From Flavobacteriales bacterium (GTDB lineage: Bacteria; Bacteroidota; Bacteroidia; Flavobacteriales_D; Crocinitomicaceae), in the NCBI GenBank assembly GCA_046070685.1, contig JBJTMU010000010.1:18480-82479 (forward strand): a DNA stretch of 64,000 nucleotides. Direction: 5' to 3'. The position numbers were made by a program, and so were the translations under genes. This document shows positions 2,048-39,722 of this stretch, piece by piece. How positions within the stretch are numbered: the stretch's first letter is position 1; every line of letters starts with the position of its first letter. The notes beneath the pieces were generated by a model, which did not search any database, had not been told where the DNA came from, and saw only the letters and a program-made list of their open reading frames with translations.

Positions 2048-3346
2048 TTAATGCTGTATAATCAGTTGTTTCATTCGCTTCACTCCATTACTTAAATCTA
2101 TCGAAACGAAATATGATCCATTCGGTAGATCTGATAAATCGATCAAGCCATCGGAATTAATTCTCATGTTATCGCGTATTTTCCCGGTTAAATCAATGAT
2201 TTGTATTTCTTCAACTTCGGCACCCTCAGCTTGAATGTGAATCATTCCGTTGCTCGGATTTGGAAAAATGGCTACCTGATTTGTTTCTTCCGCTAATCCA
2301 GAAGTTGAACATACTTCATTCACCGGACTTCCATCGCAATAACTTGTTGGGTAGAGAATGGCTGCTTGCATCGGATTGTTTGCAGGTTGAAGTGCTGTTT
2401 CAGTACATCCCATTTGCTTCACTAAAAAATCCCGCACAAATCGAATGGTTGTGTCCATATAGGATGCATTTGATAAATACGGAACATGTGGAGCTCCTGG
2501 AAAGGTATAAAATTGATTTTCGACTCCCACAGCACAAGCGCGTTCATGTAACATGCGACTTCCATCTAAGTACATGAGGGGTGTTCCGGGATTTACCATT
2601 CCTCGATTGTATTTAACTGTGCCATCTGATGTTCCATGAAACGAACACAACGGAATATCTCCTGCTTGTAACCAACTATAGCGAGCCAAGGCGCCACATC
2701 CATTGATCACGGCGTGAACTTTTGTAGAATATCCGGGATTTCCACTATTTCCTTCTAGTCCGCCTAGGGTTTGCATGGCACTTGCGTTCAAATAATCAGA
2801 GATTTCACATGCATCATTTAAATAGGCAACATGTAATGCCGTGATGGCACCCGCAGAACTTCCGCCAATAAAAATATGATTGGTGTCCACTTTAAATTGA
2901 TTAGCGGTTTGGCAATCCTTATAGAAAAAGCGTATTGCTCCTTTCAAATCCTGTACAGCTCGAACAACTGCTTTAACGGCATTCGCTGAATCAAAAGGAA
3001 AGAAGCCTAATCGGTAATCGATGCTTGCGCAGACATATCCTTTTTTTGCAAAACTTTCTGACCATGTTTTTACGTCGTTGTCCGTTTTAGATCCGCCAAT
3101 AAAACTTCCTCCATGAACCCAAATGATTAATGGTCGAGCGAGTTGCGTATCTCCAGTTGGTTCATAAAAATCTAGTTTCAATTGACTACTAGATCCACTC
3201 CATGTGTTGTTTTGTCCATACACAATATCGCTAGTCAAGTTGAAATTGGTAAATACATCCGTTGCATACCGTCCACCATCACAAGGAGATTGAGCAAAAC
3301 TTTTCAGGCTGATGAGCAAGGTAAAAATGAGCGTAATTTTTTTCAT
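2048..3346 (-). CDS. Secreted alpha/beta-hydrolase (carboxylesterase/lipase type) with T9SS C-terminal sorting domain
   Basis: Signal peptide, oxyanion motif VHGGSFIGG and nucleophile elbow GGSSAG (GxSxG). The C-terminal ~75 aa (FPNPSNGMIHIQ...GSYFVSI...LIIQH) form a type-A T9SS CTD. Confidence 0.8.
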   Translation of the reverse strand: MKKITLIFTLLISLKSFAQSPCDGGRYATDVFTNFNLTSDIVYGQNNTWSGSSSQLKLDFYEPTGDTQLARPLIIWVHGGSFIGGSKTDNDVKTWSESFAKKGYVCASIDYRLGFFPFDSANAVKAVVRAVQDLKGAIRFFYKDCQTANQFKVDTNHIFIGGSSAGAITALHVAYLNDACEISDYLNASAMQTLGGLEGNSGNPGYSTKVHAVINGCGALARYSWLQAGDIPLCSFHGTSDGTVKYNRGMVNPGTPLMYLDGSRMLHERACAVGVENQFYTFPGAPHVPYLSNASYMDTTIRFVRDFLVKQMGCTETALQPANNPMQAAILYPTSYCDGSPVNEVCSTSGLAEETNQVAIFPNPSNGMIHIQAEGAEVEEIQIIDLTGKIRDNMRINSDGLIDLSDLPNGSYFVSIDLSNGVKRMKQLIIQH

Positions 3347-15833: not shown

Positions 15834-18401
15834 TTAATCAAACACAATTTTCATTTCCACACGTCTATTTTTCTGACGTCCTTCTGGCGTATCATTCGTC
15901 GCAATTGGTTTTGTTTCACCGTAATATTGCGTGATCAAACGAGTGGCATCAATTCCTTGAGTTACTAGGAAAGCTTTTACAGCTTCGGCACGTTTCTTTG
16001 AAAGTACCATGTTCGCCATATCATCTCCTTGATTATCCGTATGACCAGTAATCTCCAGTTTCCATGTTGTTTTTTTCTTTAATACTTCCGCTAACTCGCT
16101 TAGTGATACTTTCGAGCCTTCAAGAATGATGTCTTTTCCAGTTTCGAATTCTAAATTGTCAAAGGCAGTTTTAAGTACTTCAATCACTGCTTGTTCAATC
16201 ACCGGACATCCTTTATTTGATTTCGGTCCAGGTGTATTCGGACAATCATCATCTTTGTCAAGTAATCCATCTTTATCACTGTCTTTATAAGGACATCCTT
16301 TATTTGCTGCAGGTCCAGCTAGGGTTGGACAATCATCATCCTTATCTAGGATACCATCATTGTCACCATCCTTATAAGGACAACCACGGTTTTCTTTTGG
16401 ACCAGCAACATCTGGACACTCATCAATGAAATCGTAAACTCCGTCGGCATCTTTATCTGGACAACCTTTATTTGCTACTGGTCCGGCATTGTCTGGACAA
16501 GCATCTTCACCATCTTGAACACCATCACCATCTTTGTCTGGACAACCTTTCAATGCTGGTAGTCCAGCAACTGTAGGACACGCATCTTCTGAGTCGATGA
16601 TTTTATCACCATCCGTATCCGGACAACCTTTAAATTCTTTTAATCCAGCAACATCTGGACAAGCGTCTTTTTTGTCAATGATTTTATCACCATCTTTATC
16701 CGGACAGCCCTTAAACTCAGCGGTGCCAGGCTCGTTGATACAATCGTCTTCAGAATCTGGAATGCCGTCATTATCTGTATCTGGACAACCTTTAAAGGTC
16801 CAAGTGCCAGGTACATCTTTACACTTGTCCTTTTTATTGGATACTTTATCATTGTCCTTGTCTTTTACACGGGTATAATTAATTGGAACACGTGCTCCAG
16901 CATAGAATTCAATACCGCTAACATTGTTTTTTGCTAGGAGTGTTTTCATATCTGTAATTCCAATAACCAATGGGCCAATTCTTGTTGCAATACCATATTT
17001 CATTCCGCTGTATTGATTCATTGAAATGGGCATGTACACACCAAAGTATGGACTATCAAAACTCGGCGTAATGGAGAATTGATTAGCTGTTTTCACTTTA
17101 GTATCTTTTCCTTGTGAGATTAAATTCACCATGGAAGTGGCATTCACATAAAAGCCTTTCCAAATTTGATAATCCACCTGAACGCTAACCGCTGTTGGTG
17201 TTCTCATTCGGAACGTTTGAGAAGTGTTTTGTAGTGCCACCCAATCCTTATTTCCAGCCGCACTAGATTGTTGAATCAAGGTGTCAATCACGCCATCGAA
17301 TCCTTCTAAATTAGTGGCTGATTCAAATCGGTGTAAATTGAATAAATTGGTCGTATTGACAGCAAAATTTCTACTTAATCCACCTTTTGTAAACTTCATG
17401 CTACCCATATCCACAATGGACAAGCCCGCACGTAGTTTATATTTATTTTCGTTTCTTCTCCATAGGTTGGTTTCCCCATCCATGTCGTATTTGAATTTTG
17501 CATATTTCGGACGCCATTCATACACAGCTCCGATATCCATACCAAATCCCAATTTGGAAGAAGGACGAAGTAAATCCTGAATACTTGGATTTTGACCGTT
17601 CATTCCATTATTGATGATCCCATTGACGTTGTTGGAATAGCCATAATCAAATGTTCCAGAAAGGTATTGAGACGTATCTTCGTTCTTTAAATTGTAGGAA
17701 AAATTATCCGTATAAACGTATGCAGCAGCGTGACCCAATAATAATTTTGGAGAAATCCCAACTTTCAAGAAATGTTCTTTATTGTCCATAACCACCTGCG
17801 AATAATTAAATCCAACTTCGGTCCAAGTCATGTAATTGACATTAAACAATTGTTCATTAAATTTCGCATTCCACAAGCTTGGATGAATCAATCCGTCTTC
17901 TGCTAACACCGCCAATTTTGGATCCATGTTGTCCACGTTCACGATGCTGCGATTGCGAATATTAAATCCAATCGCTGTTTTCTCGTTGATATGGAACATG
18001 GTATTCAATAAATCAACTTGGAAATTGATATTTGCTCCCAATGTTTTGGTTGAATTTTCATTGTAATTATGAACAATGAATCGATCAATAAAACTTGAGT
18101 CAGGTTTTGACCATGCGTTCAAAATTGTAGAATCATTGAATGATTTCAACCACCAATAACCTTGTCCACCTTGAGCGGTGCGCATCGCATTGGCATCGAA
18201 ATACCCGAAATTTTGATAGACGTTTAAGTTCGTCCCAAAAAGCAACATGTCGAATTTATATCGACCATCAACAAAATTTGCAGGATTGACTTGATTTCCA
18301 ATTACGCCAGCGTAGTTGCTGGAGCCCAGTCCAAGATAACTTTGAGCTTGAATCTGTGCTTGGACAACAAAAATAGAAAGACAAACGATTAATTTTCTCA
18401 T
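15834..18401 (-). CDS. OmpA-family outer-membrane protein: N-terminal beta-barrel-like domain, 7 thrombospondin type-3 Ca-binding repeats, OmpA-like C-terminal domain
   Basis: Signal peptide and a ~500-aa beta-rich domain. Seven CPDxDxDGxxDxxDxCP repeats follow. The C-terminal domain carries ITGHTDNQGDDMANMVLSKKRAEAV and NRRVE. Confidence 0.85.
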   Translation of the reverse strand: MRKLIVCLSIFVVQAQIQAQSYLGLGSSNYAGVIGNQVNPANFVDGRYKFDMLLFGTNLNVYQNFGYFDANAMRTAQGGQGYWWLKSFNDSTILNAWSKPDSSFIDRFIVHNYNENSTKTLGANINFQVDLLNTMFHINEKTAIGFNIRNRSIVNVDNMDPKLAVLAEDGLIHPSLWNAKFNEQLFNVNYMTWTEVGFNYSQVVMDNKEHFLKVGISPKLLLGHAAAYVYTDNFSYNLKNEDTSQYLSGTFDYGYSNNVNGIINNGMNGQNPSIQDLLRPSSKLGFGMDIGAVYEWRPKYAKFKYDMDGETNLWRRNENKYKLRAGLSIVDMGSMKFTKGGLSRNFAVNTTNLFNLHRFESATNLEGFDGVIDTLIQQSSAAGNKDWVALQNTSQTFRMRTPTAVSVQVDYQIWKGFYVNATSMVNLISQGKDTKVKTANQFSITPSFDSPYFGVYMPISMNQYSGMKYGIATRIGPLVIGITDMKTLLAKNNVSGIEFYAGARVPINYTRVKDKDNDKVSNKKDKCKDVPGTWTFKGCPDTDNDGIPDSEDDCINEPGTAEFKGCPDKDGDKIIDKKDACPDVAGLKEFKGCPDTDGDKIIDSEDACPTVAGLPALKGCPDKDGDGVQDGEDACPDNAGPVANKGCPDKDADGVYDFIDECPDVAGPKENRGCPYKDGDNDGILDKDDDCPTLAGPAANKGCPYKDSDKDGLLDKDDDCPNTPGPKSNKGCPVIEQAVIEVLKTAFDNLEFETGKDIILEGSKVSLSELAEVLKKKTTWKLEITGHTDNQGDDMANMVLSKKRAEAVKAFLVTQGIDATRLITQYYGETKPIATNDTPEGRQKNRRVEMKIVFD
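16203..16865 (-). repeat. Coding tandem repeats: 7 TSP type-3-like units (aa ~513-733)
   Basis: Repeated KGCPDxDGDxxxDxxDxCPxxxGxxxx units were read from the translation. Confidence 0.8.
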
Positions 18402-22870: not shown

Positions 22871-25102
22871 TTACATACGTAATCTTAACTCGTTTAATTT
22901 ACGATTGTCAATCACTTCAGCTTTCTTTCTTAGGGCACCAATAACTTGTCCTTGGAATGAACCTTTTAGTGTTTTGGTCATTTCATCTTTTTCTACTTTG
23001 AAAACAGTAGAAGCAGGAGCTTTTGTTGTTTTCATGATTTGAATCATATAAACACCACTTTTACCTTTTAATGGCAATGTTCTTTTTCCATTTTTCATCA
23101 CTGAAGAGAACAACATACCGATGATTTCTGGCTCATATCCAACATTGGCAATTTGTGGATTTGCAAAAGTGATTTCAGCTGTTTGAACCATTAGGTTACA
23201 TTTTTTCGCTACGGATTTCAATGAATTGCCTTTGGACATTTGATTCATGAAACGTTTCGCTTTTTTCTCTGTAATTAATTCACGTTCCAATTCTGCCTTC
23301 ACATTTTCATATGTTGGTTCACCTTCTTCTTTGATTGAAGTAACCATTCCAATTACATATTTGTCTTTATCCTTGATTGGATAAGTGGTTAATGAACCAA
23401 CTTCTACACCATCACTATAGGCTAATTCTAAAATTTTATCGGCAGCCATAGTTGTCATAAATCCATAAGCTTTCGGCGCTCTGTCTTCTAATAAAATAGA
23501 ACGGGAAACATAATTTGCTTGACGAACAATGGTATCGAACACGCTCACTTTTTTAAGGATATCCGTTGTTTTACCAACTTTTCTGTCCAATTTATAAAGG
23601 ATATTGTTGATCTCACTTTCTTTGTTGCTGATCGTTTCCTCTGATGCTTTAAATTGTTTTGAAATAGAAACCAATACCGGTAATTTAGAAGCATCTCTTT
23701 CCATTACTTCCACAATGTGGAATCCAAATTCTGTTTTTACAACACCAAATTTGTTTAATGGAGCTGTTGCACAATATGAACCGAATTCTGGAACCATGTC
23801 TCCTTCAAGGAAATTATCAATAACACCACCGGTCTTTTTAGATTGCGTATCATCAGAAAATTTATCAGAAAGTGCCGTAAAGTTTTCTTTGTTAATGATT
23901 TTCAATAAGCTATCAGCTGTTTTGCGTTTTGCTTCAATTACTTTAGCATCTTTCGTACCGTTAGTTGACAACAAGATATGTCTTGCTTTCAAACGAGAAG
24001 GCGTGAATCCAATGACTTTGGAAATCACCATGTTTTCTTTCATTGAATACGGTCCAACGACTTGTCCAACACTTGCCAATTTAAAGATAGTATCGTAAGA
24101 ATTTGGATAAGTTTGGTATTGATTCGCTTTTGGATTTCCTTCAGGAACAGCTGTTGAACGTTTGCTGTTGAAGTAAATTTTCACATCACTATTACGTAAA
24201 ACATACAATGAATCGTTTGTGGAGGTAATGAATCCAGCTTTTAATTCATTCAATAACTTGTTCATTTTAGTTGTATCTGCTTTAGATGGAGCAACAACCA
24301 CATCAAAAACTTTCACTTCTCTTGATGAAGAACGAATGGCATATTTTTTATCTCCCTTATGCTCATCGTAGTACGCTTTAATTTCACTCTCCGAAACTTT
24401 TACATCTGCATCAGCAATATCAGAATAAGGTCTAAAAACGAATGAAATGGATTTTGTTTCTTTGGAAGAATAGTATTTATCTTCTGCTTCTAAATTTGTA
24501 ACGTAAGCTGCTTGATCCAATAAACCAAAATATTTTTCACGTTTTCTTGTATCAGTGTAATATTGCTTCGTGCCATTCCACTGCTGAACTGCTTGTGGTT
24601 CTTTACTTGTTTTTAACTTGTTTAAAGTGGTTTGAAGTTTTTTTCTACCTTCCACCATTGACTGAGGCGAAATAGCACCAGTTGTTGAGTCAACAAAAAA
24701 TTGATTCAAGTCTTGAATGATGTTAAAACCATCAGTAGCCATTAAATAGGCATTGAATTCGCGCTCTGAAACAGAAATACCTAAGGCATTATATTCTTTA
24801 CTTAAAATGGTAGAATCTACTAAATAATTCCAACTATTGTCGTTCGCAGTCTCCATATCTGCATCCGTAAACTCCTTGTTGTTTTGCATGGCTTGATTTC
24901 TGCCTTGCTCCTGGAATTTAGCACTTGCCATGTTGTAATCTTTTGGATCTACTTTCTCTCCATAGACTGTACCTATTCCATATTGACCTTCGTTGATACC
25001 TAATAAATGTTGGTAATCAGATAAGATAAACGTTGCTAATGCAAGACCTACAATTCCAACTAATAAACCAGATTTCTTACGAATTTTTCCAATAATTGCC
25101 AT
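22871..25102 (-). CDS. PpiD-like periplasmic peptidyl-prolyl isomerase/chaperone
   Basis: N-terminal TM anchor, SurA-N-like region, and a parvulin domain (ARHILL...GGVIDNF...FGFHIVEV). Confidence 0.8.
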   Translation of the reverse strand: MAIIGKIRKKSGLLVGIVGLALATFILSDYQHLLGINEGQYGIGTVYGEKVDPKDYNMASAKFQEQGRNQAMQNNKEFTDADMETANDNSWNYLVDSTILSKEYNALGISVSEREFNAYLMATDGFNIIQDLNQFFVDSTTGAISPQSMVEGRKKLQTTLNKLKTSKEPQAVQQWNGTKQYYTDTRKREKYFGLLDQAAYVTNLEAEDKYYSSKETKSISFVFRPYSDIADADVKVSESEIKAYYDEHKGDKKYAIRSSSREVKVFDVVVAPSKADTTKMNKLLNELKAGFITSTNDSLYVLRNSDVKIYFNSKRSTAVPEGNPKANQYQTYPNSYDTIFKLASVGQVVGPYSMKENMVISKVIGFTPSRLKARHILLSTNGTKDAKVIEAKRKTADSLLKIINKENFTALSDKFSDDTQSKKTGGVIDNFLEGDMVPEFGSYCATAPLNKFGVVKTEFGFHIVEVMERDASKLPVLVSISKQFKASEETISNKESEINNILYKLDRKVGKTTDILKKVSVFDTIVRQANYVSRSILLEDRAPKAYGFMTTMAADKILELAYSDGVEVGSLTTYPIKDKDKYVIGMVTSIKEEGEPTYENVKAELERELITEKKAKRFMNQMSKGNSLKSVAKKCNLMVQTAEITFANPQIANVGYEPEIIGMLFSSVMKNGKRTLPLKGKSGVYMIQIMKTTKAPASTVFKVEKDEMTKTLKGSFQGQVIGALRKKAEVIDNRKLNELRLRM

Positions 25103-25164: not shown

Positions 25165-25189
25165 AAAAAAGGAGGCTTATTTGCCTCCT
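25165..25189 (-). terminator. Intrinsic terminator whose loop contains the stop codon of the giant gene
   Basis: Stem AGGAGGC / GCCTCCT (25170-25176 / 25183-25189). The loop contains TTA (the TAA stop at 25177-25179). A T6 run follows on the minus strand. Confidence 0.7.
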
Positions 25190-28100
25190 CCTTTTTGTGG
25201 TGTTCCTCCTTTCGGAGCAATTGGATTTGGTGGGTTTGGTGAGCTCTGCTGAACAGGTGACGGATTATTCACTCCTCCACCAGCAGGTTTGGTTGTTGTA
25301 GGAGTCGGCGTAACTGTTGGTTTTGCCTGACTCGGAGTCGGTGTGGTCGTTGGTCGTGCCGGCTGTACAGGCCTAGCCTGAGGTGATGTTTGTGCCGGTC
25401 TATTAGTCGGAGTTGTTTGAACAGGAGCAGGTTGTGTTTGAACAGGTTTTTGCTGAACTGGTCGATTCTGATTGGTCTGATTATTATTGGTTTTGTATTG
25501 ACTTGGTTGTTGATTCTGTTGAATCATTCCATCTGAATTTCCACTTCCTGAACCGCCTCCATTTTGACTTCCGTCGTCGTATGTAATCACGTACGATTTC
25601 GTATCAATACCGCATGAACTAGTTGCCGTGATTTGAATCGTATTCATGCCAACTGCTAAATTTAACGTTGCTGAAATGTTTCCATTTGAATTCCCAAATG
25701 TGCTAATTTCCATTCCATTCAATAACAACTGGATGCTTGTACTCGGTGCATAGTTGGTAACACTCGATGTAAAGGATAAATTGTTGGTGTTTACGGTACT
25801 ACCAGATGCCGGATCTGTTGTGATTGTTATCACTGGTGGAATGCAACTTTGATAGCGAATTGTTCTTAGTTGAGATGCGGTTCCGCACGCATTTGTTGCC
25901 GTAAGGACAATTTCATCTACGCCTTCTGGTAAATTTAACGTGGCGGTAAAGGATCCGTTGCTGAAATTGAAATTGTTGACTGGAACTCCCGCAACTGTCA
26001 AGTTGATGCCTTGCGTATTTGACATATTTTGTATGTTCGCTTGGAAAGGGAAAATAGGACTATTTACTCCGTAGAATAAGTCCACAGGATTGATGATGGT
26101 AACCACGGGTGGAACACACTGATCTAAGATGATTGTCGTTGTCTCATTCGCTGATCCACAGGCGTTTTGCGCTGATAAAACAAGTTGATTTAGCCCATTT
26201 GCTAAGTTTAACATGGCGGAAATTTGTCCATTCATGAAACTAGCATTTGGAATGATATTTCCATTTAAGGTTAAACTGATTCCTTGTCCACTTCCCATAT
26301 TTTGAATACTTCCAGAGAAGGAATAATTGGCATTCGTTACCGACGTATTCGTGGAGGATGGATTCGTGATGTTAACAACTGGAGTCAGACATGCTTCATA
26401 TTTGATATAGGCAAATTTACTATCTGATCCACAGGTATTTGTAACGCTTAGATTGATTTCATTGTTGCCATTTGTCAAGTTCAACGTAGCCGTTAACTGA
26501 CCATTTTGCAGGTTGAAATTAGTAATCGCCTGTCCATTTAAACTTAGATTAATTTGTTGTGCGGTCACTTGTTGAACGCTTGCTTCGAAAACAAATGTAC
26601 TTGAACTAACCGTTAACGCGTTGTTGGATGGATTTGTGATCTGAACTTGCGGTGCAATACACGGATTATAGGAAATATTGATCGTTTTACTATCTGTTCC
26701 ACAAGATCCATTCGCACTGATCGTAACACTATTATTTCCGTTCGATAATGGTAAATTAACACTAACGAGTCCAGTAGTCGAATTAAACTGAACGTTGTTT
26801 AAAGGAACGCCATTTAAGGTAACACTTAATCCTTGTGCATTCGTCATGTTTTGAACACTTGCTGTGAACGCAACTGAATTGGTGTTTGCAATGTAATTTG
26901 TTCCGGTTGGATTGGTGATTGTGAAAATTGGTGCATTACATGGTTCATAACGAATCACTCTGCTCTGCGCATCGTTTCCACACGCATTTGTTGCCGTTAA
27001 CACAATCGTATTCATGCCATTTGACAAGGTGATATCCGCACTGAACTGCCCATTGTTATAGCTGAAATTAGAAATGGAATTTCCATTTAAACTTAAACTA
27101 ATTCCTTGACTATTGGACATATTAGAAATGGTCCCTTGAATGTGAATGAGTGGGTTCGAAACACCATAATTTGTATTGGCTGGATCAGAGATATTTACTT
27201 GAGGTGCCGAACAAGGATTATAGGTTAAGACTTGTGTTTTGGAATCAGAACCACAGGCATTTGTCGCGCTTAAAACAAATGTATTCAATCCGGATGTTAA
27301 ATTCACTGTCGCAGAAATCTGTCCGTTCGAATAGGTGAAATTGTTAACGACAGTTCCATTTAGCGTGAGATTCACTCCTTGGGCACTGGTCAATTGTTGA
27401 ACAGCTCCTTGGAATAAATAGGTTGCATTATTGACTGTTGTTGTTCCATTGGATGGATTGATTATCTGAACAGAAGGCGGTGTGCAATTCAAATAAGTAA
27501 CAGTCGATGTTTTCATATCTGATCCGCATGCATTGCTCACGGTTAAAACGAATGTATTCATTCCTGAGGATAGGCTAACATTAGCCGAAACTGTACCATT
27601 TGAATAAGTGAAATTGGTGATCGCGTTTCCATTTAAACTTAAGAGAATTCCTTGTCCGCTGGTGATGTGCTGAATATTCGCAGAATACGTATAGCTCGCT
27701 GTTGAAACTGAACTTGCGTTAATGGATGGATTCGTCACAGTAATCACTGGGGCCACACAATTGTTATAGAAAATAGTGATCGTTTTAATATCAGTACCAC
27801 ACGCATTTGTTGCTTTTAATACGAGTGTATTTAAGCCATTTTGTAAATTGATGTTGGCAGAAAGATTTCCATTATTATATGAAAGGTTAGTAATAGCTGT
27901 TCCATTCAAGGTGAACAATATTCCTTGCGTAGAGGAAATGTTTTGAATACTCGCTTGGAAAGAATAGTTTGCCGTGTTTACGGATATACCGCTATTACTT
28001 GGATTGGTAATCGTTATACTTGGAGCAGTGCACGGCGTAAATGTTACATCCCAATGGTGCTGATCTGAACCACAGTTGTTGGCAACGGATAAGACCAAGG

Positions 28101-31089
28101 AATTATTTCCAGACACTAAATTGATAAGCGCATTAAATTGTCCATTCACAAAGGTAAACGGACGTTGAATTCCATTTTGAGTGAACACAATTTGTTGTGT
28201 GTTTGCATGTGCAATTGTTGCTGTAAAGGTCTGTGTTGAATTAGATAATACCGTTTGTGGATTATTGGAGAAATTCGAAATACTTGGGGCAATGCAATTG
28301 TCGTAAATTAAGGTAAACGTTTCAGCGTCTAATCCGCAATCGTTCGAGGCAGATAATACCAAGGTGTTTTGACCTGGAGTCAAGGATACAGAACTAGAAA
28401 TGGTTCCATTTGTATAGGTAAATGGAATCGTTGTTCCGTTTAATTTAAGTTGAATATTCTGAGCGGAGTTCACCCCGGTTACACTTGCATTCAAGGAATA
28501 AAGTGAGTTGGTTACAGTTGATCCATTCACAACAGTGGAGGTCAATTGTAGAACAGGTGGCGTACATTGAACAAAATTCACCGTAAACGTCTCGGCGTCA
28601 TTTCCACACGCGTTGTTTACTGACAAGGTAATGGTATTAATTCCATTGGAGAGATTTATATTCGCTTGCACTTGACCATTCGCAAATGTGAAAGGAATTT
28701 GTTGTCCATTTTTTACCAATTGAACATTTTGTGATTGTGAAATATTACTTACTGCAGCTTGGAAATTCAATAGACTAACATTCGTTGTTCCACCAGTCGT
28801 ACTTGGTTGAAGCAAGCTAATTTGTGGAGCTATACAGTTGTTGTAATTAACCGTAATCGTTTTTGAATCTGATCCACAAGCTGAAGTTGTTGCAGAAACA
28901 ACAAAGGTGTTGACACCTGGAATCAACGTAGTAACGGCATTTATTTGATTTGAAAGTTGATTAAATGGAATGGCGACACCATTTTGCATAACTGAAATAG
29001 TTTGTCCATTTTGGGTGATAGTTGCTGTGGACGTTGTGCTTGCGAATAAATTGTAAATGCCATTATTCGTTGAGCCTCCAGCGGAAAGAATGGTGACATT
29101 TGGCGTAATGCCCGTACAATTGATGGAGTTGAATTGGATCGTTTCGACATCGGACCCGCAATTATTTGTAGCAGTAATGGTGATGCTATTGTTGCCACTA
29201 ATTGGGGTTAACCCTAACTCTAATGCGCCTGTGGTCGAATTAAAGGTAAAGGACGATTGCTCGATTCCATTGACAAGTACGTTGATGTTCTGTTTATTGG
29301 TGATATTTGTCACTACAGACTTTAAGCGAATTGCCGTGCTAGAAGTGATGCTTTGATTTTGCGTTGGACTTTGAATTGTAATGGTTGGTGCCGAACAATT
29401 TTGGAAGTTGATGATGGTCATTTCTACATCATTTCCACATCCATTGGAAACAGTTAAATTAAAGGTATTTAGTCCCGGTATAAGTGTGAGTGGTAGTTGA
29501 ATTTGACCATTTGTTTGAATCACTACATTCGGAATGATGACACCATTCTGACTTAATTTAACAACAGCATTGGTGAATGAACCAGATACAGATGCACTCA
29601 AGTTAAAGGAAGCACTATTGATTGTTGTTCCAGATGCACTTGGATTTAAGAATTGAACTTGTACGGGGACACAATTATCATATTGAATAGTTGCGGTGTA
29701 TGTATTTGTTCCACAGTCGTTTGAAACCGTTAATTGAATCGTGTTGACACCTGGATTTAATACCAAAGCTTTTTGCAATAATCCATTGGAAGGATTGAAA
29801 GTAGCACCATTTAATGCCATTCCATTCATGAGCAATTTTATATTATTGGCTTGAACGGAACCTTGAATCATAGCGCTAAAAGCAAAATCACTCGATTTCA
29901 CGGTAATAGCTCCACCAGTTGGATTCGTAAATACGGCAGTTGGTGTGACACAATTCAATAAAGTCACGAGGACATCAGCTGTTTCATTGCCACAATTATT
30001 GTTTGCTGTTAAACGGAAGGTGTTTTGTCCGATGTGTAATTGAACGTTTGCGTCAACAAGTTGATTGGCAGCATTGTAATTGAAAAGTACCGGTTGATTC
30101 TGGTCATTATACAAGGTGATTCCACTAGCGTTGTTCAGGTTACTTACTTTAAACTCTAAACGATATTGACTATTGGTTACGGTTTTATTGTTTCCTGATA
30201 ATAAGGTTACAACAGGTTTTGGACAATTTGTTGTGGTGGAATAGTTATTAATGTTACTTGCATTATTTGAGGAAGTGTGTCCATTTCCACGAGATTTGAA
30301 ATGCACTTTAATGTATGCGGAAGTATAATGATACCAGTCGTTTTTAGTTCTTGGCGAAGTGGAAATATATCCATCAAAGTAATCGGCACGTGTGAAAGTC
30401 GTTTTATGTTCAATACCAATACTGGCTCTTTTCCCGATTTGATACCCCAATCCGAAGCCTAAACTTGGCATCCATTTGGCTTGATAAGAATGATTAGAGC
30501 CTCCATCCAAACGTGTTTCATAAATTCCATCTAATGTGGTGGAAAGCTGTGGTCCGATTGGACCATTTTGTTGGAGGGAAGAATAATCGTAAATACTTGC
30601 AGAATCTCCTTGTAATAAATCTCCATAGGTTTGAGACCATGTAACACCAATTCCACCAAAAATATACGGATCAAATCCCGTTCTTTCGTGAAGGTTGTTC
30701 AAGTGTAGAACTAATTCTAAGCTCAGACGTTTTACATCGGTTTGGAAATTATTGACATAAACGGAAGAACTATCAAGTTGATAAGCACTTAATGGTCCAC
30801 CGCTATAATTGACTAATGAAAAAGCATTGGTGTCCTGACCAACCCATGTACCTGTTAGAAATCGGCCTCTTAAATCAAAACTGATTCTCTTTCCGTAATC
30901 ATAATTATAGGATCGGCCAAAAGTAAATCCATAGCCACCGCTATTTACTTTCTTAACATCTGTTGAACTCCAGGTAGCACCAGCGTTAATGCCAAAAAAC
31001 CATTTGGATTGTGTGTCGTAGGAAATGTGTTGAGCTTTCGCAAAGGAAAAACTACAGATGATGACACTGAGAATGTACCAATTTTTCAT
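25177..31089 (-). CDS. Giant putative envelope/surface protein (1970 aa): N-terminal OM beta-barrel-like domain, 17 tandem repeats, Pro/Thr/Gln-rich basic tail
   Basis: Signal peptide. aa ~21-265 form amphipathic beta strands ending YTSAYIKVHF. aa 289-1838 hold 17 repeats, each running from C-x-x-P to N-x-C-G-x-D. aa 1839-1970 are low-complexity (PVQ/TPT) and end PKGGTPQKGGGK. No T9SS CTD is present. Confidence 0.8.
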   Translation of the reverse strand: MKNWYILSVIICSFSFAKAQHISYDTQSKWFFGINAGATWSSTDVKKVNSGGYGFTFGRSYNYDYGKRISFDLRGRFLTGTWVGQDTNAFSLVNYSGGPLSAYQLDSSSVYVNNFQTDVKRLSLELVLHLNNLHERTGFDPYIFGGIGVTWSQTYGDLLQGDSASIYDYSSLQQNGPIGPQLSTTLDGIYETRLDGGSNHSYQAKWMPSLGFGLGYQIGKRASIGIEHKTTFTRADYFDGYISTSPRTKNDWYHYTSAYIKVHFKSRGNGHTSSNNASNINNYSTTTNCPKPVVTLLSGNNKTVTNSQYRLEFKVSNLNNASGITLYNDQNQPVLFNYNAANQLVDANVQLHIGQNTFRLTANNNCGNETADVLVTLLNCVTPTAVFTNPTGGAITVKSSDFAFSAMIQGSVQANNIKLLMNGMALNGATFNPSNGLLQKALVLNPGVNTIQLTVSNDCGTNTYTATIQYDNCVPVQVQFLNPSASGTTINSASFNLSASVSGSFTNAVVKLSQNGVIIPNVVIQTNGQIQLPLTLIPGLNTFNLTVSNGCGNDVEMTIINFQNCSAPTITIQSPTQNQSITSSTAIRLKSVVTNITNKQNINVLVNGIEQSSFTFNSTTGALELGLTPISGNNSITITATNNCGSDVETIQFNSINCTGITPNVTILSAGGSTNNGIYNLFASTTSTATITQNGQTISVMQNGVAIPFNQLSNQINAVTTLIPGVNTFVVSATTSACGSDSKTITVNYNNCIAPQISLLQPSTTGGTTNVSLLNFQAAVSNISQSQNVQLVKNGQQIPFTFANGQVQANINLSNGINTITLSVNNACGNDAETFTVNFVQCTPPVLQLTSTVVNGSTVTNSLYSLNASVTGVNSAQNIQLKLNGTTIPFTYTNGTISSSVSLTPGQNTLVLSASNDCGLDAETFTLIYDNCIAPSISNFSNNPQTVLSNSTQTFTATIAHANTQQIVFTQNGIQRPFTFVNGQFNALINLVSGNNSLVLSVANNCGSDQHHWDVTFTPCTAPSITITNPSNSGISVNTANYSFQASIQNISSTQGILFTLNGTAITNLSYNNGNLSANINLQNGLNTLVLKATNACGTDIKTITIFYNNCVAPVITVTNPSINASSVSTASYTYSANIQHITSGQGILLSLNGNAITNFTYSNGTVSANVSLSSGMNTFVLTVSNACGSDMKTSTVTYLNCTPPSVQIINPSNGTTTVNNATYLFQGAVQQLTSAQGVNLTLNGTVVNNFTYSNGQISATVNLTSGLNTFVLSATNACGSDSKTQVLTYNPCSAPQVNISDPANTNYGVSNPLIHIQGTISNMSNSQGISLSLNGNSISNFSYNNGQFSADITLSNGMNTIVLTATNACGNDAQSRVIRYEPCNAPIFTITNPTGTNYIANTNSVAFTASVQNMTNAQGLSVTLNGVPLNNVQFNSTTGLVSVNLPLSNGNNSVTISANGSCGTDSKTINISYNPCIAPQVQITNPSNNALTVSSSTFVFEASVQQVTAQQINLSLNGQAITNFNLQNGQLTATLNLTNGNNEINLSVTNTCGSDSKFAYIKYEACLTPVVNITNPSSTNTSVTNANYSFSGSIQNMGSGQGISLTLNGNIIPNASFMNGQISAMLNLANGLNQLVLSAQNACGSANETTTIILDQCVPPVVTIINPVDLFYGVNSPIFPFQANIQNMSNTQGINLTVAGVPVNNFNFSNGSFTATLNLPEGVDEIVLTATNACGTASQLRTIRYQSCIPPVITITTDPASGSTVNTNNLSFTSSVTNYAPSTSIQLLLNGMEISTFGNSNGNISATLNLAVGMNTIQITATSSCGIDTKSYVITYDDGSQNGGGSGSGNSDGMIQQNQQPSQYKTNNNQTNQNRPVQQKPVQTQPAPVQTTPTNRPAQTSPQARPVQPARPTTTPTPSQAKPTVTPTPTTTKPAGGGVNNPSPVQQSSPNPPNPIAPKGGTPQKGGGK
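25576..30225 (-). repeat. 17 diverged in-frame tandem repeats of ~273 bp (~91 aa)
   Basis: The pattern is CxxPxIxIxNP...QGIxLxLNGxxIxNFxYxNGxxSAxLxLxxGxNTxVLxAxNACGxDxK...Y. Neighbouring units share roughly half of their residues by eye. Confidence 0.85.
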
Positions 31090-31191: not shown

Positions 31192-32085
31192 TTACTTGTA
31201 ATACGTGTACTTCGTGAAGCGTAAAATCAAGAGGAAATTTGTTTCTACATTTCGCTGAATAGTGGAACCAAGTAGTTGTGTTTTTGTATCGAAAACGATT
31301 TGAAGGTCCTTTTGAAAATCGCCATAACGAAAAAAATGTGCTTCAATGAGGTTCCCAAATGTGTCGTACCGATATTTCCATTCGATTTCTGCCGATTCAT
31401 CTTGTTCATTAAAGTGGGCTTTGGATGCGAGTAGTCCGCGTTCATTGTATCCATAAACATAATGATGCTCGATAGAACTCATGCGATAATGAATGGTTTT
31501 TTTCAGTAGATAGCCATCGTTATTGTAATAAGAAACTTCATCTAAATAGGGGAGATGGTAATTGTTGAGTCGAATTTGCTCCAATTCCCCCGGTCGATTG
31601 ACATACTCAAAATACTCCGTATTGATCAAATAGGATTGGACTAACTGATGTGTTGCATAAGAATAAATATCGCGATACGTTTCTTCACTCATCAAGCGAT
31701 GTAGGGTGTCGTAGCTATATTTGTAAGTAGTAAATCCATTGTATTCAGACTTGCGATGTTCGGTCAATTGATTCCTTTCGTTGTACGCGTATTGATGCAA
31801 TGTGGTGTCCTTTCTATTTTTTACCGTGTGAATATCTAAGCTTTCAATAAGTCTGCCTAATTCATCGAATTTATAGCGAGCCCAGTCACTTGTTTCTTTA
31901 ATGACTTCACCAGGTTTTTTTGTCGAATAGTTTCCCTCGATGGATTTGATGTGATTCGAACGAACGACATCTGCATTGAAAAATGGCTGCTCAGTAAACG
32001 CTTCCCCTTCTTGATTCAGCAAAAGTTGACTCATCCCAACCGTGGGAATGAATAGAAGAAACAGAAGCAGACTTTTTACATTCAA
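31192..32085 (-). CDS. Small exported YD/RHS-repeat-like protein (297 aa, TTG start)
   Basis: Signal peptide NVKSLLLFLLFIPTVGMSQ. Five or six YxYDxxGxL-like units are present: YKFDELGRL, YAYNERNQL, YSYDTLHRL, YGYNERGLL, YRYDTFGNL. Confidence 0.55.
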   Translation of the reverse strand: MNVKSLLLFLLFIPTVGMSQLLLNQEGEAFTEQPFFNADVVRSNHIKSIEGNYSTKKPGEVIKETSDWARYKFDELGRLIESLDIHTVKNRKDTTLHQYAYNERNQLTEHRKSEYNGFTTYKYSYDTLHRLMSEETYRDIYSYATHQLVQSYLINTEYFEYVNRPGELEQIRLNNYHLPYLDEVSYYNNDGYLLKKTIHYRMSSIEHHYVYGYNERGLLASKAHFNEQDESAEIEWKYRYDTFGNLIEAHFFRYGDFQKDLQIVFDTKTQLLGSTIQRNVETNFLLILRFTKYTYYK

Positions 32086-34864: not shown

Positions 34865-36220
34865 CTATTGCAGAACGATTTTTTTGGAACTACTTTGTCC
34901 CTTGATTTTAACATGGTAAATGCCTTTGTAAAGCACATCTGCGTTAAAATAGGCAATCGTACTTCCTTGAACGATTTGCTGTGTTTGAATTAGTTTGCCC
35001 AATGCATCGTATAATTCAACTGTTTGCGTTTGATTTGTTAAATCATTCAATTGAACCATAATGATATCGTTGCTTGGATTAGGATAAACAGACCAATCAT
35101 TTTCGTTTAATTCAATCAAACCAACATTTGATGTGTATGTCGTCACTGTCTCCGTAATAGAGCTTACTTTAGCAGCCGTCTTCACACCGTAAAAAGTGGG
35201 TCCAACAACATACGGATAAGCGGAATTCCATTGATCGTCAACAGTGGCGAAATAACAATAGATCCCATTTGGGTATTCCGGTGTAACACAAAATCGGCCA
35301 TTGTGAATGTCTAAAAAATCTCCTTCTGGATGACTGATAAATTCATAGTCTTCTCGAAAATAGCCCAAAGGATAAGTTGTACTTACCGCTGGACCATCTG
35401 GAACATCTGTTCCATCTGCCCAAATCGTTCGTGTGGATATATTTCGTAATTGATAACTTGATTTCATTCGGGTGATTCCACCTGATCCATCAACATTTTT
35501 GTAACCATAAGCTCCGTAAATAGGAAAACCATCGTATGCATAACCAATCAATGGTGAATGAACCATTGAGTCAATCACGTACAATCCATCGGCGTCATAT
35601 AAATCACAAACATTCGAAATTACGGTCAAATCGAGTTTAAATGCACTTGGATTTTGGTGATGGTGATAATTTCCTTGTGCAGGATGTCCTTTTGAACAAT
35701 CAAACCCTGGTTTTTCAGCTGGAACAGCATCTCTGTTCCATGGCATGTTCGCAGCGGGTCCTCCTGGACAAGGTGGATTTCCTGGGCCTCCACACAAGGC
35801 ATTCGTCGCGGTATTCCAAGCCACACCATCTCGGTAGTCAAACAAAGCGACGCCATTCACGAAAATCCCGATGTTTCCACCAGTAGTTGCGGTTAAGGTC
35901 CCTGTATTTTGTGCTGGATTTAACGGAATTTTAAAAATGGCATTTTGATTTGTCGCCAAAGATGGATTTCCATCCATAAATGGACCTGTTATGTAAGATG
36001 GTACGCCTGTTGTCGTCACATAGACCCAATTAGTGGAATATTGAACGTTTTGGACATTTGCTAACGTTGTTTCAATGATAGGTGTAGAATTACCTTGAAC
36101 ATAATGTCTTCCAGTTATTCCGGCCGTATTGATGAGCCAATGTTCAATGGCTGGATTCAATTGCGCTGATGCTTGCCATCCGCATGCAAACAAGAATAGA
36201 AATAGTGCATTTTTTCTCAT
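34865..36220 (-). CDS. YHYH-domain protein with T9SS C-terminal sorting domain
   Basis: Signal peptide. Motifs FDCSKGHPAQGNYHHHQNP and LDIHNGRFCVTPEYPNGIYCYFAT match the YHYH family pattern. The C-terminus VYPNPSNDIIMVQL...GIYHVKI...IVLQ is a type-A CTD. Confidence 0.75.
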   Translation of the reverse strand: MRKNALFLFLFACGWQASAQLNPAIEHWLINTAGITGRHYVQGNSTPIIETTLANVQNVQYSTNWVYVTTTGVPSYITGPFMDGNPSLATNQNAIFKIPLNPAQNTGTLTATTGGNIGIFVNGVALFDYRDGVAWNTATNALCGGPGNPPCPGGPAANMPWNRDAVPAEKPGFDCSKGHPAQGNYHHHQNPSAFKLDLTVISNVCDLYDADGLYVIDSMVHSPLIGYAYDGFPIYGAYGYKNVDGSGGITRMKSSYQLRNISTRTIWADGTDVPDGPAVSTTYPLGYFREDYEFISHPEGDFLDIHNGRFCVTPEYPNGIYCYFATVDDQWNSAYPYVVGPTFYGVKTAAKVSSITETVTTYTSNVGLIELNENDWSVYPNPSNDIIMVQLNDLTNQTQTVELYDALGKLIQTQQIVQGSTIAYFNADVLYKGIYHVKIKGQSSSKKIVLQ

Positions 36221-36249
36221 GGGTAAATAATTGTATTTAAAGTTAGAAG

Positions 36250-37293
36250 TTAATTTTTATCATTACTTGCGCTTCGCTCGTTTTTTGGAAACTTAAATGC
36301 CGGATTAAATAAAAACGTGGGGTCACTTAAGGTTTTTAAAAAGGCCAGTAAATCCTTTTGCTCATGGGCTGAAAGTGTGCGATTTAATTTCTTCAATTCT
36401 TTACTGTAATAAGTCTGATGAGAGTGTAGTTCTGCGTAATGAGACAGCACTTCTTTTAAACTTTTAAATCGTCCATCGTGCATATACGGGAAACTAAATT
36501 CAATATTCCGAAGGGTCGGTATTTTAAATAATAAGGAGTCCGATGCTCGATGCGTAATACCCATTCGACCCACATCCTTAAGCGCAGTTGAATACGGTAA
36601 GCCATTAGATTTAAATTCATTTTTGGTAAATAATGGTTCTTGATGACATGAAGCACAATACTTTTTGAAAAGCTGATAGCCTGATTTTTCTTGCGGAGAA
36701 AAGGAACTTTCTCCATTCTTTACGTGATCATACTTGGATTGAGCAGAAACCAACGACACCGTAAAATTTGCCAAAGCTTTGAGTAGATGGGAAGCTTCAA
36801 TCGCACTGTCGCCAAAAGCAGCATAAAATCTAGATCGATAAAATGTAGAGGCATTCAGTCGTCTTAATATTTCTTCAAGCGTATTGTCCATTTCCTTTGG
36901 ATGGGTGAGTGGATTGATGGCTTGTTTGTTTAGGGAACTAACTCCTCCATCCCAATGAAAAGAATTTTGCCAAGCAAGATTGATTAATACCGGAGCATTT
37001 CTGGTTCCTATTTGACCATCGATTCCATGACTGAGCGCGTGGTCAATGTGTGTGAATCCGGAATACTGCAAATGACAATTGGCGCATGAAATAGTGCTAT
37101 CTCTTGATAAATCAGGATCATAAAATAATGTTCGACCTAATTCAAATTTTTCTTCAGAAAGGGGATTGTACGAAAAATCATAGCTTGGTTTTGGCCATTT
37201 GGTGGGTATATAAAAAGGCGTGTCATTCCTCACACCTGCAAAGAAAAGAAGCAGTAAACAAAGGGATCCGAAAAACAAGGCAAATCTTTTCAT
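36250..37293 (-). CDS. Di-haem cytochrome c peroxidase/MauG-family enzyme (MbnH-like)
   Basis: Two CxxCH motifs (CANCH, CASCH), PTLRNIEFSFPYMHDG, and a size of 347 aa. Overlaps the upstream MbnP-like gene by 4 nt. Confidence 0.85.
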   Translation of the reverse strand: MKRFALFFGSLCLLLLFFAGVRNDTPFYIPTKWPKPSYDFSYNPLSEEKFELGRTLFYDPDLSRDSTISCANCHLQYSGFTHIDHALSHGIDGQIGTRNAPVLINLAWQNSFHWDGGVSSLNKQAINPLTHPKEMDNTLEEILRRLNASTFYRSRFYAAFGDSAIEASHLLKALANFTVSLVSAQSKYDHVKNGESSFSPQEKSGYQLFKKYCASCHQEPLFTKNEFKSNGLPYSTALKDVGRMGITHRASDSLLFKIPTLRNIEFSFPYMHDGRFKSLKEVLSHYAELHSHQTYYSKELKKLNRTLSAHEQKDLLAFLKTLSDPTFLFNPAFKFPKNERSASNDKN

Positions 37294-37940
37294 TCGGAAT
37301 AAAAATATGGGGAGAGTTTTTGGCAGTAATCTTTTGCTGTTTTTCCTGGAATCATTATTCGTTGAGCCTGCTGAAAGTCAACTGTGTTTTCAAAAAATGG
37401 TTTTAAATCGAGGATTAAATGAGTTCCTTTCAGGACTAATTCAACTGGTACCATGGTTTCATACGGTTGACGATAACCTCCTAAATGGTATTCAAATTGT
37501 TGGTCTGAAATAGGCAATGAAGAGGAAATACCGGTGCATTTAAATTGAATGTATCCAGAATTCCATGCCCAATACATGCCATTCATTGGATTAAGCGGAC
37601 CTTCGAGTATTTCTGAAACATGATATAAACTATCCATGCCAAAATGAAAGCTGATGGATTTGTAGTCTTTTACAGGGAAATCCTTAAAAATTGTCCAAGT
37701 GCTTGAATCTTCAGCATCGCAAAGAATTGGTTTAACAATGACTTGCTTTCTCCCTTCTTTTTCAAAAGTAAAGTCAGATAAATAGTATTTTATTTCTTGA
37801 AATGTCAGACTATCGGATCCTAGTTGGTACCATTTCCCCAAGGCAATTTCTTCAGTTCCCCAGTGCATCGAAACCTGTAATTGGGCAAAGGAATCAAGTT
37901 TAAAAACAAGTAGAAAACAAGAAAGAATCAGAAACTTCAT
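37290..37940 (-). CDS. MbnP-family protein (putative copper-binding partner of MbnH)
   Basis: Signal peptide. Motifs GMYWAWNSGYIQFKCTG and FEYHLGGY match the MbnP pattern I recall. It lies immediately upstream of, and overlapping, the di-haem peroxidase gene. Confidence 0.75.
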   Translation of the reverse strand: MKFLILSCFLLVFKLDSFAQLQVSMHWGTEEIALGKWYQLGSDSLTFQEIKYYLSDFTFEKEGRKQVIVKPILCDAEDSSTWTIFKDFPVKDYKSISFHFGMDSLYHVSEILEGPLNPMNGMYWAWNSGYIQFKCTGISSSLPISDQQFEYHLGGYRQPYETMVPVELVLKGTHLILDLKPFFENTVDFQQAQRIMIPGKTAKDYCQKLSPYFYSE

Positions 37941-38374
37941 CGCTTTTTAGTTGGCATTGGCTTGCCAGCCATTTCAATCATTCGACGGATCACGCGTTTC
38001 AATGCTTTTTTTTCTTGAGGATTACATTTTTCATTCACCCGAATAAAATGATTAAACGTGCAAGAATCGATTTGAAATTGAATGCGACTAATTTCTTCAA
38101 ATAGTTGTTGGTTTTTCGTTGAATGTGTTGCCGAAATACTAACTTTTTTTCGCAGGGATTTTTGCTGAGCTAAAAGTTTTTGTTTTTCCTGGATGTGTCG
38201 TTTGAATTCATGGTCCACCCAGCGAGCATTTTCACCTTTCATTCCGAGCGCCACACTTAATTTTGGCGGATGAGGAGGCATGTGATGCAGTCCTCTCGGA
38301 CACGAAAAAAGGAAGATGACGTTCAATATGACGATGATTCCTAAACAAACTAATAAAATACGATTCGTTTTCAT
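37937..38374 (-). CDS. Small envelope protein, possible Spy/CpxP/ZraP-like periplasmic metal sensor
   Basis: N-terminal hydrophobic segment with LFSC lipobox, His/Met/Pro patch LHHMPPHPP, and a helical Lys/Gln-rich body. Confidence 0.4.
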   Translation of the reverse strand: MKTNRILLVCLGIIVILNVIFLFSCPRGLHHMPPHPPKLSVALGMKGENARWVDHEFKRHIQEKQKLLAQQKSLRKKVSISATHSTKNQQLFEEISRIQFQIDSCTFNHFIRVNEKCNPQEKKALKRVIRRMIEMAGKPMPTKKR

Positions 38375-39272: not shown

Positions 39273-39722
39273 TTATTCAAAGAAAAGTCGACCATTTAAC
39301 CATTCAGGATCTAAAATAGCGTGTTGTTTTTGATAGAATCGGATGGCCGGTTCATTCCAATCCAGGACTTGCCAATCCATTCGTTTTACCTGTTTCCTCT
39401 TTGCCACGCGAAGGACTTCATCAAATAATAATTGTCCAACACCTAATTTCCTTTTGGACTCTTTCACGTAAAAATCTTCTAGATACAAACAAGCTCCTTT
39501 CCAAGTAGAGTAGGAGGTGTAGTATAAAGCAAACCCAATAATCTCTGAATCAATTTCTGCGACTATGGCTTCACAAAGTTGCTTGTCAAATAAATCAATG
39601 GAAAGTTGATTTTCTGTATTGCTTACCTGTTCAGGTGCTTTTTCATAGATGGCCAATTCTTGAATCAAGCCAAAAATAGCGGAAACATCAGATACTTGTG
39701 CAGGGCGTATTTTTGGTTCCAT
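39273..39722 (-). CDS. GNAT-family N-acetyltransferase
   Basis: 149 aa. The acetyl-CoA motif region reads RKLGVGQLLFDEVLRVAKRK. Its ATG overlaps the sprA stop (TAATG). Confidence 0.8.
   Translation of the reverse strand: MEPKIRPAQVSDVSAIFGLIQELAIYEKAPEQVSNTENQLSIDLFDKQLCEAIVAEIDSEIIGFALYYTSYSTWKGACLYLEDFYVKESKRKLGVGQLLFDEVLRVAKRKQVKRMDWQVLDWNEPAIRFYQKQHAILDPEWLNGRLFFE

Follow-up and report, generated by a model that had tools for sequence, protein, structure and literature searches.

The 64,000-nucleotide stretch of Flavobacteriales DNA analyzed here (hereafter the window; family Crocinitomicaceae, contig JBJTMU010000010.1, positions 18,480–82,479) contains a giant gene at positions 25177–31089. 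The open reading frame (ORF) is intact, encodes 1970 amino acids, and is on the minus strand, the plus-strand frame over the same positions being filled with stops upon translation. Collinear orthologues in at least 80 genomes exclude a chance ORF; the gene is real, intact, and conserved, and it belongs to a large family that is unusual in kind and lacks annotation. Its product is well supported as an 8-stranded outer membrane (OM) anchor of the PorG/OmpA kind followed by a rod of immunoglobulin (Ig)-like domains, an extended spacer, and a conserved terminal peptide, without a type IX secretion system (T9SS) C-terminal sorting domain (CTD) (Table 1). A preliminary description of the window had already reported the 1970-residue ORF, a small N-terminal OM barrel, 17 repeats with the size of β-sandwich modules, and a basic P/T/Q-rich tail of 132 residues. 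All these elements were recovered, and 3 points that it had missed, the relationship of the barrel to PorG/DUF6089, the conserved terminal peptide, and the existence of a large family with this architecture, are now added to them.

Table 1. Features of the giant gene and of its 3′ end (window positions; the stop codon is at 25177–25179).
Feature	Amino acids	Positions	Strand	Evidence
Signal peptide, MKNWYILSVIICSFSFAKA	1–19	31033..31089	-	Translation; AlphaFold2 helix 2–15; cleavage before Gln20
8-stranded OM β-barrel, PorG/DUF6089 type	20–264	30298..31032	-	AlphaFold2, Foldseek, hhalign, NCBIfam
N/S/T-rich linker, barrel to repeat 1	265–287	30229..30297	-	pLDDT <50 at 274–284; low conservation
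17 tandem Ig-like repeats	288–1838	25576..30228	-	Cys spacing, repeat alignment, Pfam, AlphaFold2, Foldseek
P/T/Q/G-rich basic low-complexity spacer	1839–1965	25195..25575	-	Composition
C-terminal motif K-G-G-G-K	1966–1970	25180..25194	-	Conservation
Intrinsic-terminator hairpin, AAAGGAGGAGGC-AAATAA-GCCTCCTTTTTT		25165..25194	-	Sequence, terminator scan; overlaps the last 5 codons and the stop

The protein begins with a type-I signal peptide, after which the mature N-terminus reads QHISYD. Gln20 is invariant in a 22-sequence alignment of relatives and fits the habit of Bacteroidota signal peptides of having Gln at position +1. The signal peptide has no lipobox, and its Cys12 is not conserved. 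Export by the Sec pathway and cleavage by signal peptidase I before Gln20 are indicated by the sequence.

The N-terminal domain was modeled with AlphaFold2 over amino acids 1–288 using an alignment of 29 relatives as input. The model (mean predicted local distance difference test score [pLDDT] of 82.9, predicted template modeling score [pTM] of 0.75) contains 8 transmembrane strands (amino acids 29–41, 50–61, 70–91, 110–129, 139–156, 203–217, 222–232, and 252–263). The final strand, WYHYTSAYIKVH, is followed by F264, in agreement with the aromatic ending of the last strand noted in the preliminary description. On the side of the termini the strands are joined by short connections of 8, 9, and 4 residues, and on the opposite side by long ones of 8, 18, 46, and 19 residues. 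When the barrel was compared with the PDB using Foldseek, the top match was the transmembrane domain of OmpA (E = 3e-9, TM-score of 0.71), and the next best were Ail, NspA, and OmpX, all of them 8-stranded. The autotransporter barrels EstA, NalP, EspP, and AaaA aligned badly (TM-scores of 0.14–0.30), and no intimin/invasin barrel was found among the 50 matches listed. When the barrel profile was searched against PDB sequences, no match was better than chance (E of approximately 0.7 or worse). Conservation of the barrel within the family was lowest in the long loops (0.40–0.53) and reached 0.63–0.81 in the strands and 0.58–0.67 in the short turns, loops L2–L4 being less conserved than both strands and short turns. 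This is the usual pattern in OM barrels that have their termini and short turns on the periplasmic side. The alignment also placed 5 invariant charged residues (D72, R74, R76, E125, and H228) on the strands, and these residues probably fill the lumen of the barrel as occurs in OmpA. Neither the window nor the sequence flanking the gene in the related loci contained a second barrel paralogue.

Sequence comparisons connected the barrel with PorG. The NCBIfam model T9SS_PorG matched weakly the whole protein (25.7 bits) and the barrel alone (28.9 bits), with a cut-off of 130, and this weak match recurred in 25 of 29 relatives (best E = 1.6e-10). A search with a profile of the barrel alone matched P0231, a DUF6089 protein of 236 amino acids (E = 4e-8) that scores 104 bits on T9SS_PorG (E = 7.6e-30, model positions 2–207 of 209). 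In hhalign, the barrel family aligned over the whole barrel both with P0231 (98.3%, E = 1.8e-14) and with an alignment of 15 DUF6089 sequences (98.6%, E = 6e-16), and the motifs (D/S)PYIFGG.G and FDG...ND.YH.TS are common to the barrel and DUF6089. Judged by these alignments, the barrel is homologous to PorG/DUF6089 over its full length. In P. gingivalis, Cys232 of PorG forms an essential disulfide with Cys356 of the periplasmic lipoprotein PorK, the C-terminal extension of PorG faces the periplasm, and its periplasmic parts contact PorK/N (PMC12365241). The bond with periplasmic PorK fixes the C-terminus of PorG on the periplasmic side, and homology to PorG therefore implies that the polypeptide of the giant protein would exit its barrel on this same side. 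P0231 has at least 120 DUF6089 relatives, and all those listed carry a Cys in a short C-terminal extension (..KKN.LDCP..), a few residues past the barrel. The first Cys after the barrel of the giant protein is Cys289, 25 residues on and part of the Cys pairs of the repeats, and in many family members a Cys is missing at the corresponding place. As a PorG orthologue by the standards of that family, the giant protein was rejected on account of a score far under the cut-off, the lack of a conserved single post-barrel Cys, and the position of Cys289 within the repeat pattern.

The rod consists of exactly 17 repeats of approximately 91 amino acids each, which start at residues 288, 379, 472, 564, 657, 751, 841, 931, 1019, 1110, 1201, 1292, 1383, 1476, 1566, 1657, and 1748. 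Their period is strict and is set by one Cys pair per repeat: a Cys near the repeat start, a second Cys 74–80 residues on, and 14 residues from there to the Cys of the next repeat. The repeats are mutually 22%–56% identical, with invariant C, G, and C-G positions in their alignment, and with this degree of mutual identity they are old. Pfam matches in the repeats were Glucodextran_B (E = 4e-21), Cadherin-like, and Big_7. Modeling of repeats 9–10 with AlphaFold2, in which the other 15 tandem pairs served as the alignment, produced 2 β-sandwiches with a pLDDT of 93. The nearest solved folds found by Foldseek for this pair were the titin Z1Z2 and I-band Ig tandems, NCAM, and the bacterial Ig-like (BIg) domains of Salmonella SiiE and of LdtMt2. 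Each Ig-like bead is probably stapled by its disulfide, and the repeats are, as modeled, a generic beads-on-a-string rod. In composition, 45% of the repeat residues are N, T, S, or Q and 4.7% are charged (D, E, K, or R), compared with 10%–16% charged residues in T9SS cargo proteins of the window and 24%–27% in periplasmic proteins of the window. The low-charge bias is specific to this clade (family median of 11.7%, maximum of 24.8%). Two glycosylation counts were uninformative: the Bacteroidota O-glycosylation motif D-[ST]-[AILVMT] does not occur in the repeats, and N-x-S/T sequons occur 60 times, with a rough composition-based estimate of approximately 56.

The 132 residues that follow the repeats (amino acids 1839–1970) include 25 P, 20 Q, 18 T, 15 G, and 13 N, have a net charge of approximately +8 (counted by eye from the translation), and end with the sequence PKGGTPQKGGGK. 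The orthologue spacers align poorly (47%–64% identity in close relatives and approximately 30% in others), and across the family the spacer is always an extended low-complexity segment of one of 3 kinds: Pro-rich (PVKPEPVKP), Ala/Glu/Lys-rich and helix-like, or Gly/Asn-rich. In 5 members (P0063, P0068, P0079, P0161, and P0181) the terminal spacer is not Pro-rich but a long Ala/Glu/Lys/Arg-rich helix-like stretch (..AEEAAKKKAEEEARK..). Spacers of this kind resemble the central domain of TolA or single α-helix spacers, and Pro-rich and Ala/Glu/Lys spacers are similar to the segments with which TonB and TolA span the periplasm.

The spacer leads to the terminal motif, a candidate short signal. 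GGG[KR] forms the extreme C-terminus in 50 of 61 complete orthologues, the terminal residue among the 61 being K in 30 and R in 23, and Lys is found at position −5 in 46 of them. The C-termini of distant members are similar peptides, basic and rich in Gly (e.g., RGGN, RGGR, and GRGGQ). The window and the loci together have 1230 ORFs, and in this set the K-G-G-G-[KR] ending is confined to the giant family. The codons of the motif (AAA GGA GGA GGC AAA TAA) also take part in the transcription terminator, the Lys-Gly-Gly-Gly codons forming the 5′ arm of a hairpin that is completed by GCCTCCTTTTTT; an overlapping hairpin is present in most orthologues, with folding energies of approximately −15 to −21 kcal/mol. 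The ending could thus be a by-product of the terminator hairpin (5′ arm AAAGGAGGAGG) and not a protein signal, as would fit the pairing of AAA GGA GGA GGY with CCTCCTTTTTT just past the stop in the window and most orthologues. We consider this unlikely. In 5 loci GGGK is encoded by different Gly codons that no hairpin overlaps, namely L028, L030, L036, and L072 (GGT GGT GGA/GGT) and L045 (GGC GGA GGG), and L028, L030, and L036 have a separate terminator further downstream. The related peptides at the C-termini of the distant members also speak against a by-product. Retention of GGGK despite other codons and no overlapping hairpin indicates that the motif is selected at the protein level, so the terminal codons appear to be under a dual constraint, at the protein and at the RNA level.

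The giant protein is one of many with this organization. When a profile of the barrel alone was searched against 1.84 billion representative proteins, 449 clusters passed a threshold of E ≤ 1e-30 and 1107 passed one of E ≤ 1e-3. The best 150 clusters are nearly all of 800–2900 amino acids with the barrel at the N-terminus, and by sequence at least 449 clusters combine a barrel, Ig repeats, and a low-complexity spacer. This architecture, whose topology the preliminary description had called unusual, is therefore not a one-off but that of a large family. Its members range from 419 to 2937 amino acids and from 1 to approximately 30 repeats, the minimal one (P0227, 419 amino acids) consisting of the barrel, a linker rich in Pro, and a single repeat. 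The named sources of the family are Crocinitomicaceae, other Flavobacteriales, and Saprospirales; the organism of the window itself occurs in a single SRA-run assembly and is therefore uncultured. The clusters bear no annotation beyond "hypothetical protein" or "large repetitive protein", and the family was not found in the literature on PorG-like proteins, Bacteroidota OM tethers, and Crocinitomicaceae envelope proteins. Close relatives have 17 collinear repeats with 65%–69% identity and barrels with 70%–75% identity; in these same relatives the neighboring genes evolve slower (approximately 90% identity for the PpiD-like protein and 95% for prolyl-tRNA synthetase, ProRS). In 6 members (P0046, P0050, P0055, P0066, P0069, and L074), 1 to 5 copies of a Cys/His-rich motif of approximately 35 amino acids (ICHYPPGN..NPQT.EIPLSAWPAHQAHGD..G.C) are located between the Ig repeats and the tail; this motif has no Pfam match and does not occur in the window protein.

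Known sorting signals and envelope domains were also looked for. Searches with Pfam and NCBIfam at E ≤ 1 found no Por_Secre_tail, CHU_C, or type-B CTD in the giant protein, including any cryptic type-B CTD, which bears out the absence of a T9SS sorting domain proposed in the preliminary description. That description had also assigned type-A CTDs to the other large exported proteins of the window, and 4 other proteins of the window do carry Por_Secre_tail (2048–3346, 10008–12551, 34865–36220, and 54382–56064). Neither an intimin/invasin barrel nor LysM or a lectin-like tip was matched by Pfam at E ≤ 1, and Pfam did not match the peptidoglycan-binding domain OmpA_C (PF00691) in the giant protein; OmpA_C is carried by the neighboring gene at 15834–18401. 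In 8 divergent family members, Pfam matched nothing from which the compartment could be read (OmpA_C, LysM, and CTD were all absent).

In the Crocinitomicaceae clade the gene order is ProRS, a secreted YD-repeat protein, the giant gene, and a PpiD/SurA-like isomerase. In the window, the gene directly upstream and in the same orientation (31192–32085, minus strand) encodes a secreted YD/RHS-repeat protein of 297 amino acids, which is conserved upstream in 46 related loci (35%–72% identity) and absent from more distant loci. Directly downstream lies the gene of a PpiD/SurA-like peptidyl-prolyl isomerase of 743 amino acids (22871–25102, minus strand). A PpiD-like gene is located downstream in 56 loci at a near-constant distance of 77–80 nucleotides, a spacer that, besides the terminator, we presume to hold the promoter of the PpiD-like gene. 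The PpiD-like protein was considered as a functional partner and rejected, given the terminator between the genes and the other neighbors of distant family members, which together indicate inherited synteny and not an operon. The 1153-amino acid neighbor of the distant members was likewise discarded, as it has no relative in the window or loci. No linkage of gldK/L/M/N to the giant gene was found in any locus examined, and GldK/N are not encoded in the window. The T9SS translocon SprA is (39722–47071, minus strand; 2449 amino acids, SprA_N E = 1e-174), 8.6 kb from the giant gene. In one distant locus (L083, 4638–7855) the giant gene divergently adjoins a pair of genes, one for an SprB-repeat/CHU_C protein with a type-B CTD and one for a PorP/SprF protein. 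Further upstream in the window, a cluster of 3 genes (34865–38374, minus strand) encodes a YHYH protein that carries a T9SS CTD, a di-heme enzyme similar to MauG/MbnH, and a copper-binding protein similar to MbnP; many related loci have the cluster upstream as well, and it may be a secreted copper-related system.

The reading that we favor, with about even confidence, is that the giant protein is an OM-anchored periplasmic rod or tether, possibly associated with the T9SS, and neither a T9SS cargo nor an autotransporter. On the basis of the barrel topology and of PorG, both ends of the barrel would face the periplasm, and the approximately 1700 C-terminal residues would start and most likely stay in this compartment. 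The periplasmic location of the rod follows from the even strand count, the conservation of loops and turns, the closed lumen, and the homology to PorG; the preliminary description had made a periplasmic start of the repeats conditional on an even, OmpA-like strand number, and the 8 predicted strands support it. The reading also agrees with the lack of any CTD or other secretion domain in the searches, with the TonB/TolA-like spacers of other members, and with an architecture that at least 449 clusters have in common, close relatives even retaining 17 collinear repeats. In such an arrangement, the barrel would fix one end of the protein in the OM, where it may adjoin the GldK/PorK-GldN/PorN ring as PorG does, and the rod would run beneath or along the OM. 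The 17 Ig beads, the extended P/T/Q-rich spacer of approximately 130 residues, and the basic K-G-G-G-K tip would make a long, flexible rod, the spacer bringing the terminal motif to a partner, which might be the wall, the inner membrane, or a different envelope complex, perhaps a T9SS-related one. In this hypothetical role the protein would be a tether or scaffold. Several points weigh against this proposal. The rod, estimated at approximately 17 × 4 nm (approximately 70 nm), and the spacer, of tens of nm, together far outreach the periplasmic width, and the rod could be accommodated only by running parallel to the membrane; the objection that the stalk is too long for this compartment, raised in the preliminary description, remains a real puzzle and applies to hundreds of proteins. 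In this clade, although not family-wide, the repeats are adhesin-like and very low in charge (4.7% versus 24%–27%), their composition being closer to that of the T9SS cargo of the window than to that of its periplasmic proteins, and Ig domains in tandem are a typical feature of adhesins at the cell surface, SiiE being one. In addition, the single post-barrel Cys of PorG is not conserved among the 146 family representatives checked, and no partner was identified, the PpiD-like neighbor lying behind a terminator and being absent from distant members.

These objections overlap with the case for a serious rival, in which the protein is a surface fiber or adhesin whose barrel serves as the anchor and whose Ig rod and basic tip are outside, exported by a route undescribed for 8-stranded barrels and assisted, for example, by the β-barrel assembly machinery. 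The N/T/S/Q-rich (45%), charge-poor repeats, the fold match with tandem Ig adhesins such as SiiE, the variation in repeat number (1 to approximately 30) and size (419–2937 amino acids), an evolution faster than that of the housekeeping neighbors (approximately 70% versus 90%–95% identity), and a rod longer than the periplasm is wide would all fit such a fiber. However, an 8-stranded barrel with conserved charged strand residues leaves no channel, the homology to PorG places the C-terminus in the periplasm, the conservation of loops and turns fits the standard orientation, Pfam and NCBIfam found no known export signal, and the low-charge bias is limited to this clade. We regard a surface location as possible but, on balance, somewhat unlikely. 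Passage of the C-terminal part through its own barrel, as in the inverse autotransporters (type Ve, intimin/invasin-like) that the preliminary description had put forward as the alternative, is highly improbable, even though an N-terminal barrel followed by C-terminal Ig-like repeats is the order expected of them: AlphaFold2 predicts 8 and not 12 strands, with conserved charged residues on them and variable long loops between them, OmpA, OmpX, and Ail ranked first in Foldseek and no intimin or invasin barrel was among the 50 matches listed, EstA, NalP, EspP, and AaaA aligned as badly as described above, Pfam found no intimin/invasin barrel, LysM, or lectin-like tip at E ≤ 1, and the protein ends in a disordered tail. 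Another possibility is that the barrel is a functional PorG variant that docks on the GldK/GldN (PorK/PorN) ring, the rod being a periplasmic spacer, a linker of rings, or part of a track. This would agree with the full-length homology of the barrel to PorG/DUF6089, with the well-conserved turn T2 (LNNLHERTG) and following strand (FDPYIFGG) that it has in common with DUF6089, with the contacts of PorG with PorK/N through its periplasmic parts (PMC12365241), with a host T9SS made evident by SprA and CTD cargo in the window, and with the N-C-P context of the first Cys, which resembles the D-C-P of DUF6089. We nevertheless doubt it, because the PorG score is 26–29 bits versus a cut-off of 130, the post-barrel Cys is absent in many members and falls here within a repeat Cys pair, and gldK/L/M/N are not linked in any locus examined.

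A bolder version of the periplasmic rod or tether, which we think rather improbable, is that a PorG-derived anchor, a titin-like periplasmic rod, and a new K-G-G-G-[KR] docking or attachment tag together constitute a structural component of the T9SS/gliding machinery or of OM-to-wall tethering among the Flavobacteriales and Saprospirales, for instance a spacer or linker of GldK/N rings, a section of the elusive gliding track, or an anchor bound covalently to the wall. If true, this would define a previously unrecognized class of envelope protein. PorG is an essential but poorly understood component of the T9SS, and if the whole family anchors rods of 1 to approximately 30 Ig domains by means of a PorG barrel, this fold would serve more generally to anchor proteins in the envelope. 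The giant protein would then be a concrete candidate for a structural element of the T9SS and gliding machineries in the periplasm or for OM tethering; to our knowledge, Bacteroidota are a phylum without Lpp. Were the rod exposed at the surface instead, it would reveal a new export route for 8-stranded barrel proteins. Either outcome would be instructive. The conserved C-terminal pentapeptide is a simple experimental handle.

Compared with known systems, the giant protein follows the same logic as the OmpA family, in which a small 8-stranded anchor is combined with a periplasmic C-terminal part, and a Pro-rich segment occurs in both; it differs in having 17 Ig-like domains in place of OmpA_C and the Pro-rich segment at the far end and not as a hinge. 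With intimin and invasin (type Ve) it has in common the order of an N-terminal barrel and tandem Ig-like (Big) domains, but the 12-stranded barrel with a threaded linker, the periplasmic LysM, and the lectin-like tip of these proteins were not found in it. The best fold matches of the repeats are the beads-on-a-string Ig tandems of titin and of giant adhesins (SiiE and LapA-type BIg arrays). SiiE/LapA-type adhesins are exported by type I secretion, for which their signal is C-terminal, and a plug at the N-terminus retains them, whereas the giant protein has its own β-barrel, and titin, unlike the giant protein, is eukaryotic and cytoplasmic. The long rod with its spacer would be analogous to the Ig-plus-PEVK segment of titin, and the P/E/V/K-rich tails of orthologues recall PEVK, as an analogy only. 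T9SS cargo proteins that carry CTDs of type A or B occur in the same host and are similarly rich in N, T, and S, but the giant protein ends in a disordered segment without the CTD fold. Lpp-like wall anchors are cross-linked to peptidoglycan via a C-terminal Lys; of the 61 orthologues of the giant protein, 30 end in K and 23 in R, and 46 have Lys at position −5. The closest relation is with PorG (PGN_0297)/DUF6089 (PF19573), the 8-stranded OM barrel of the T9SS, with which the giant protein has in common the homology over the full length of the barrel, the side of C-terminal exit, and T9SS-bearing Bacteroidota hosts. PorG/DUF6089 proteins are of approximately 210–260 amino acids and end in the invariant Cys that bonds PorK, whereas the giant protein continues for approximately 1700 amino acids past the barrel, and it is best classed as a new variant in architecture that uses the PorG/DUF6089 barrel as its base.

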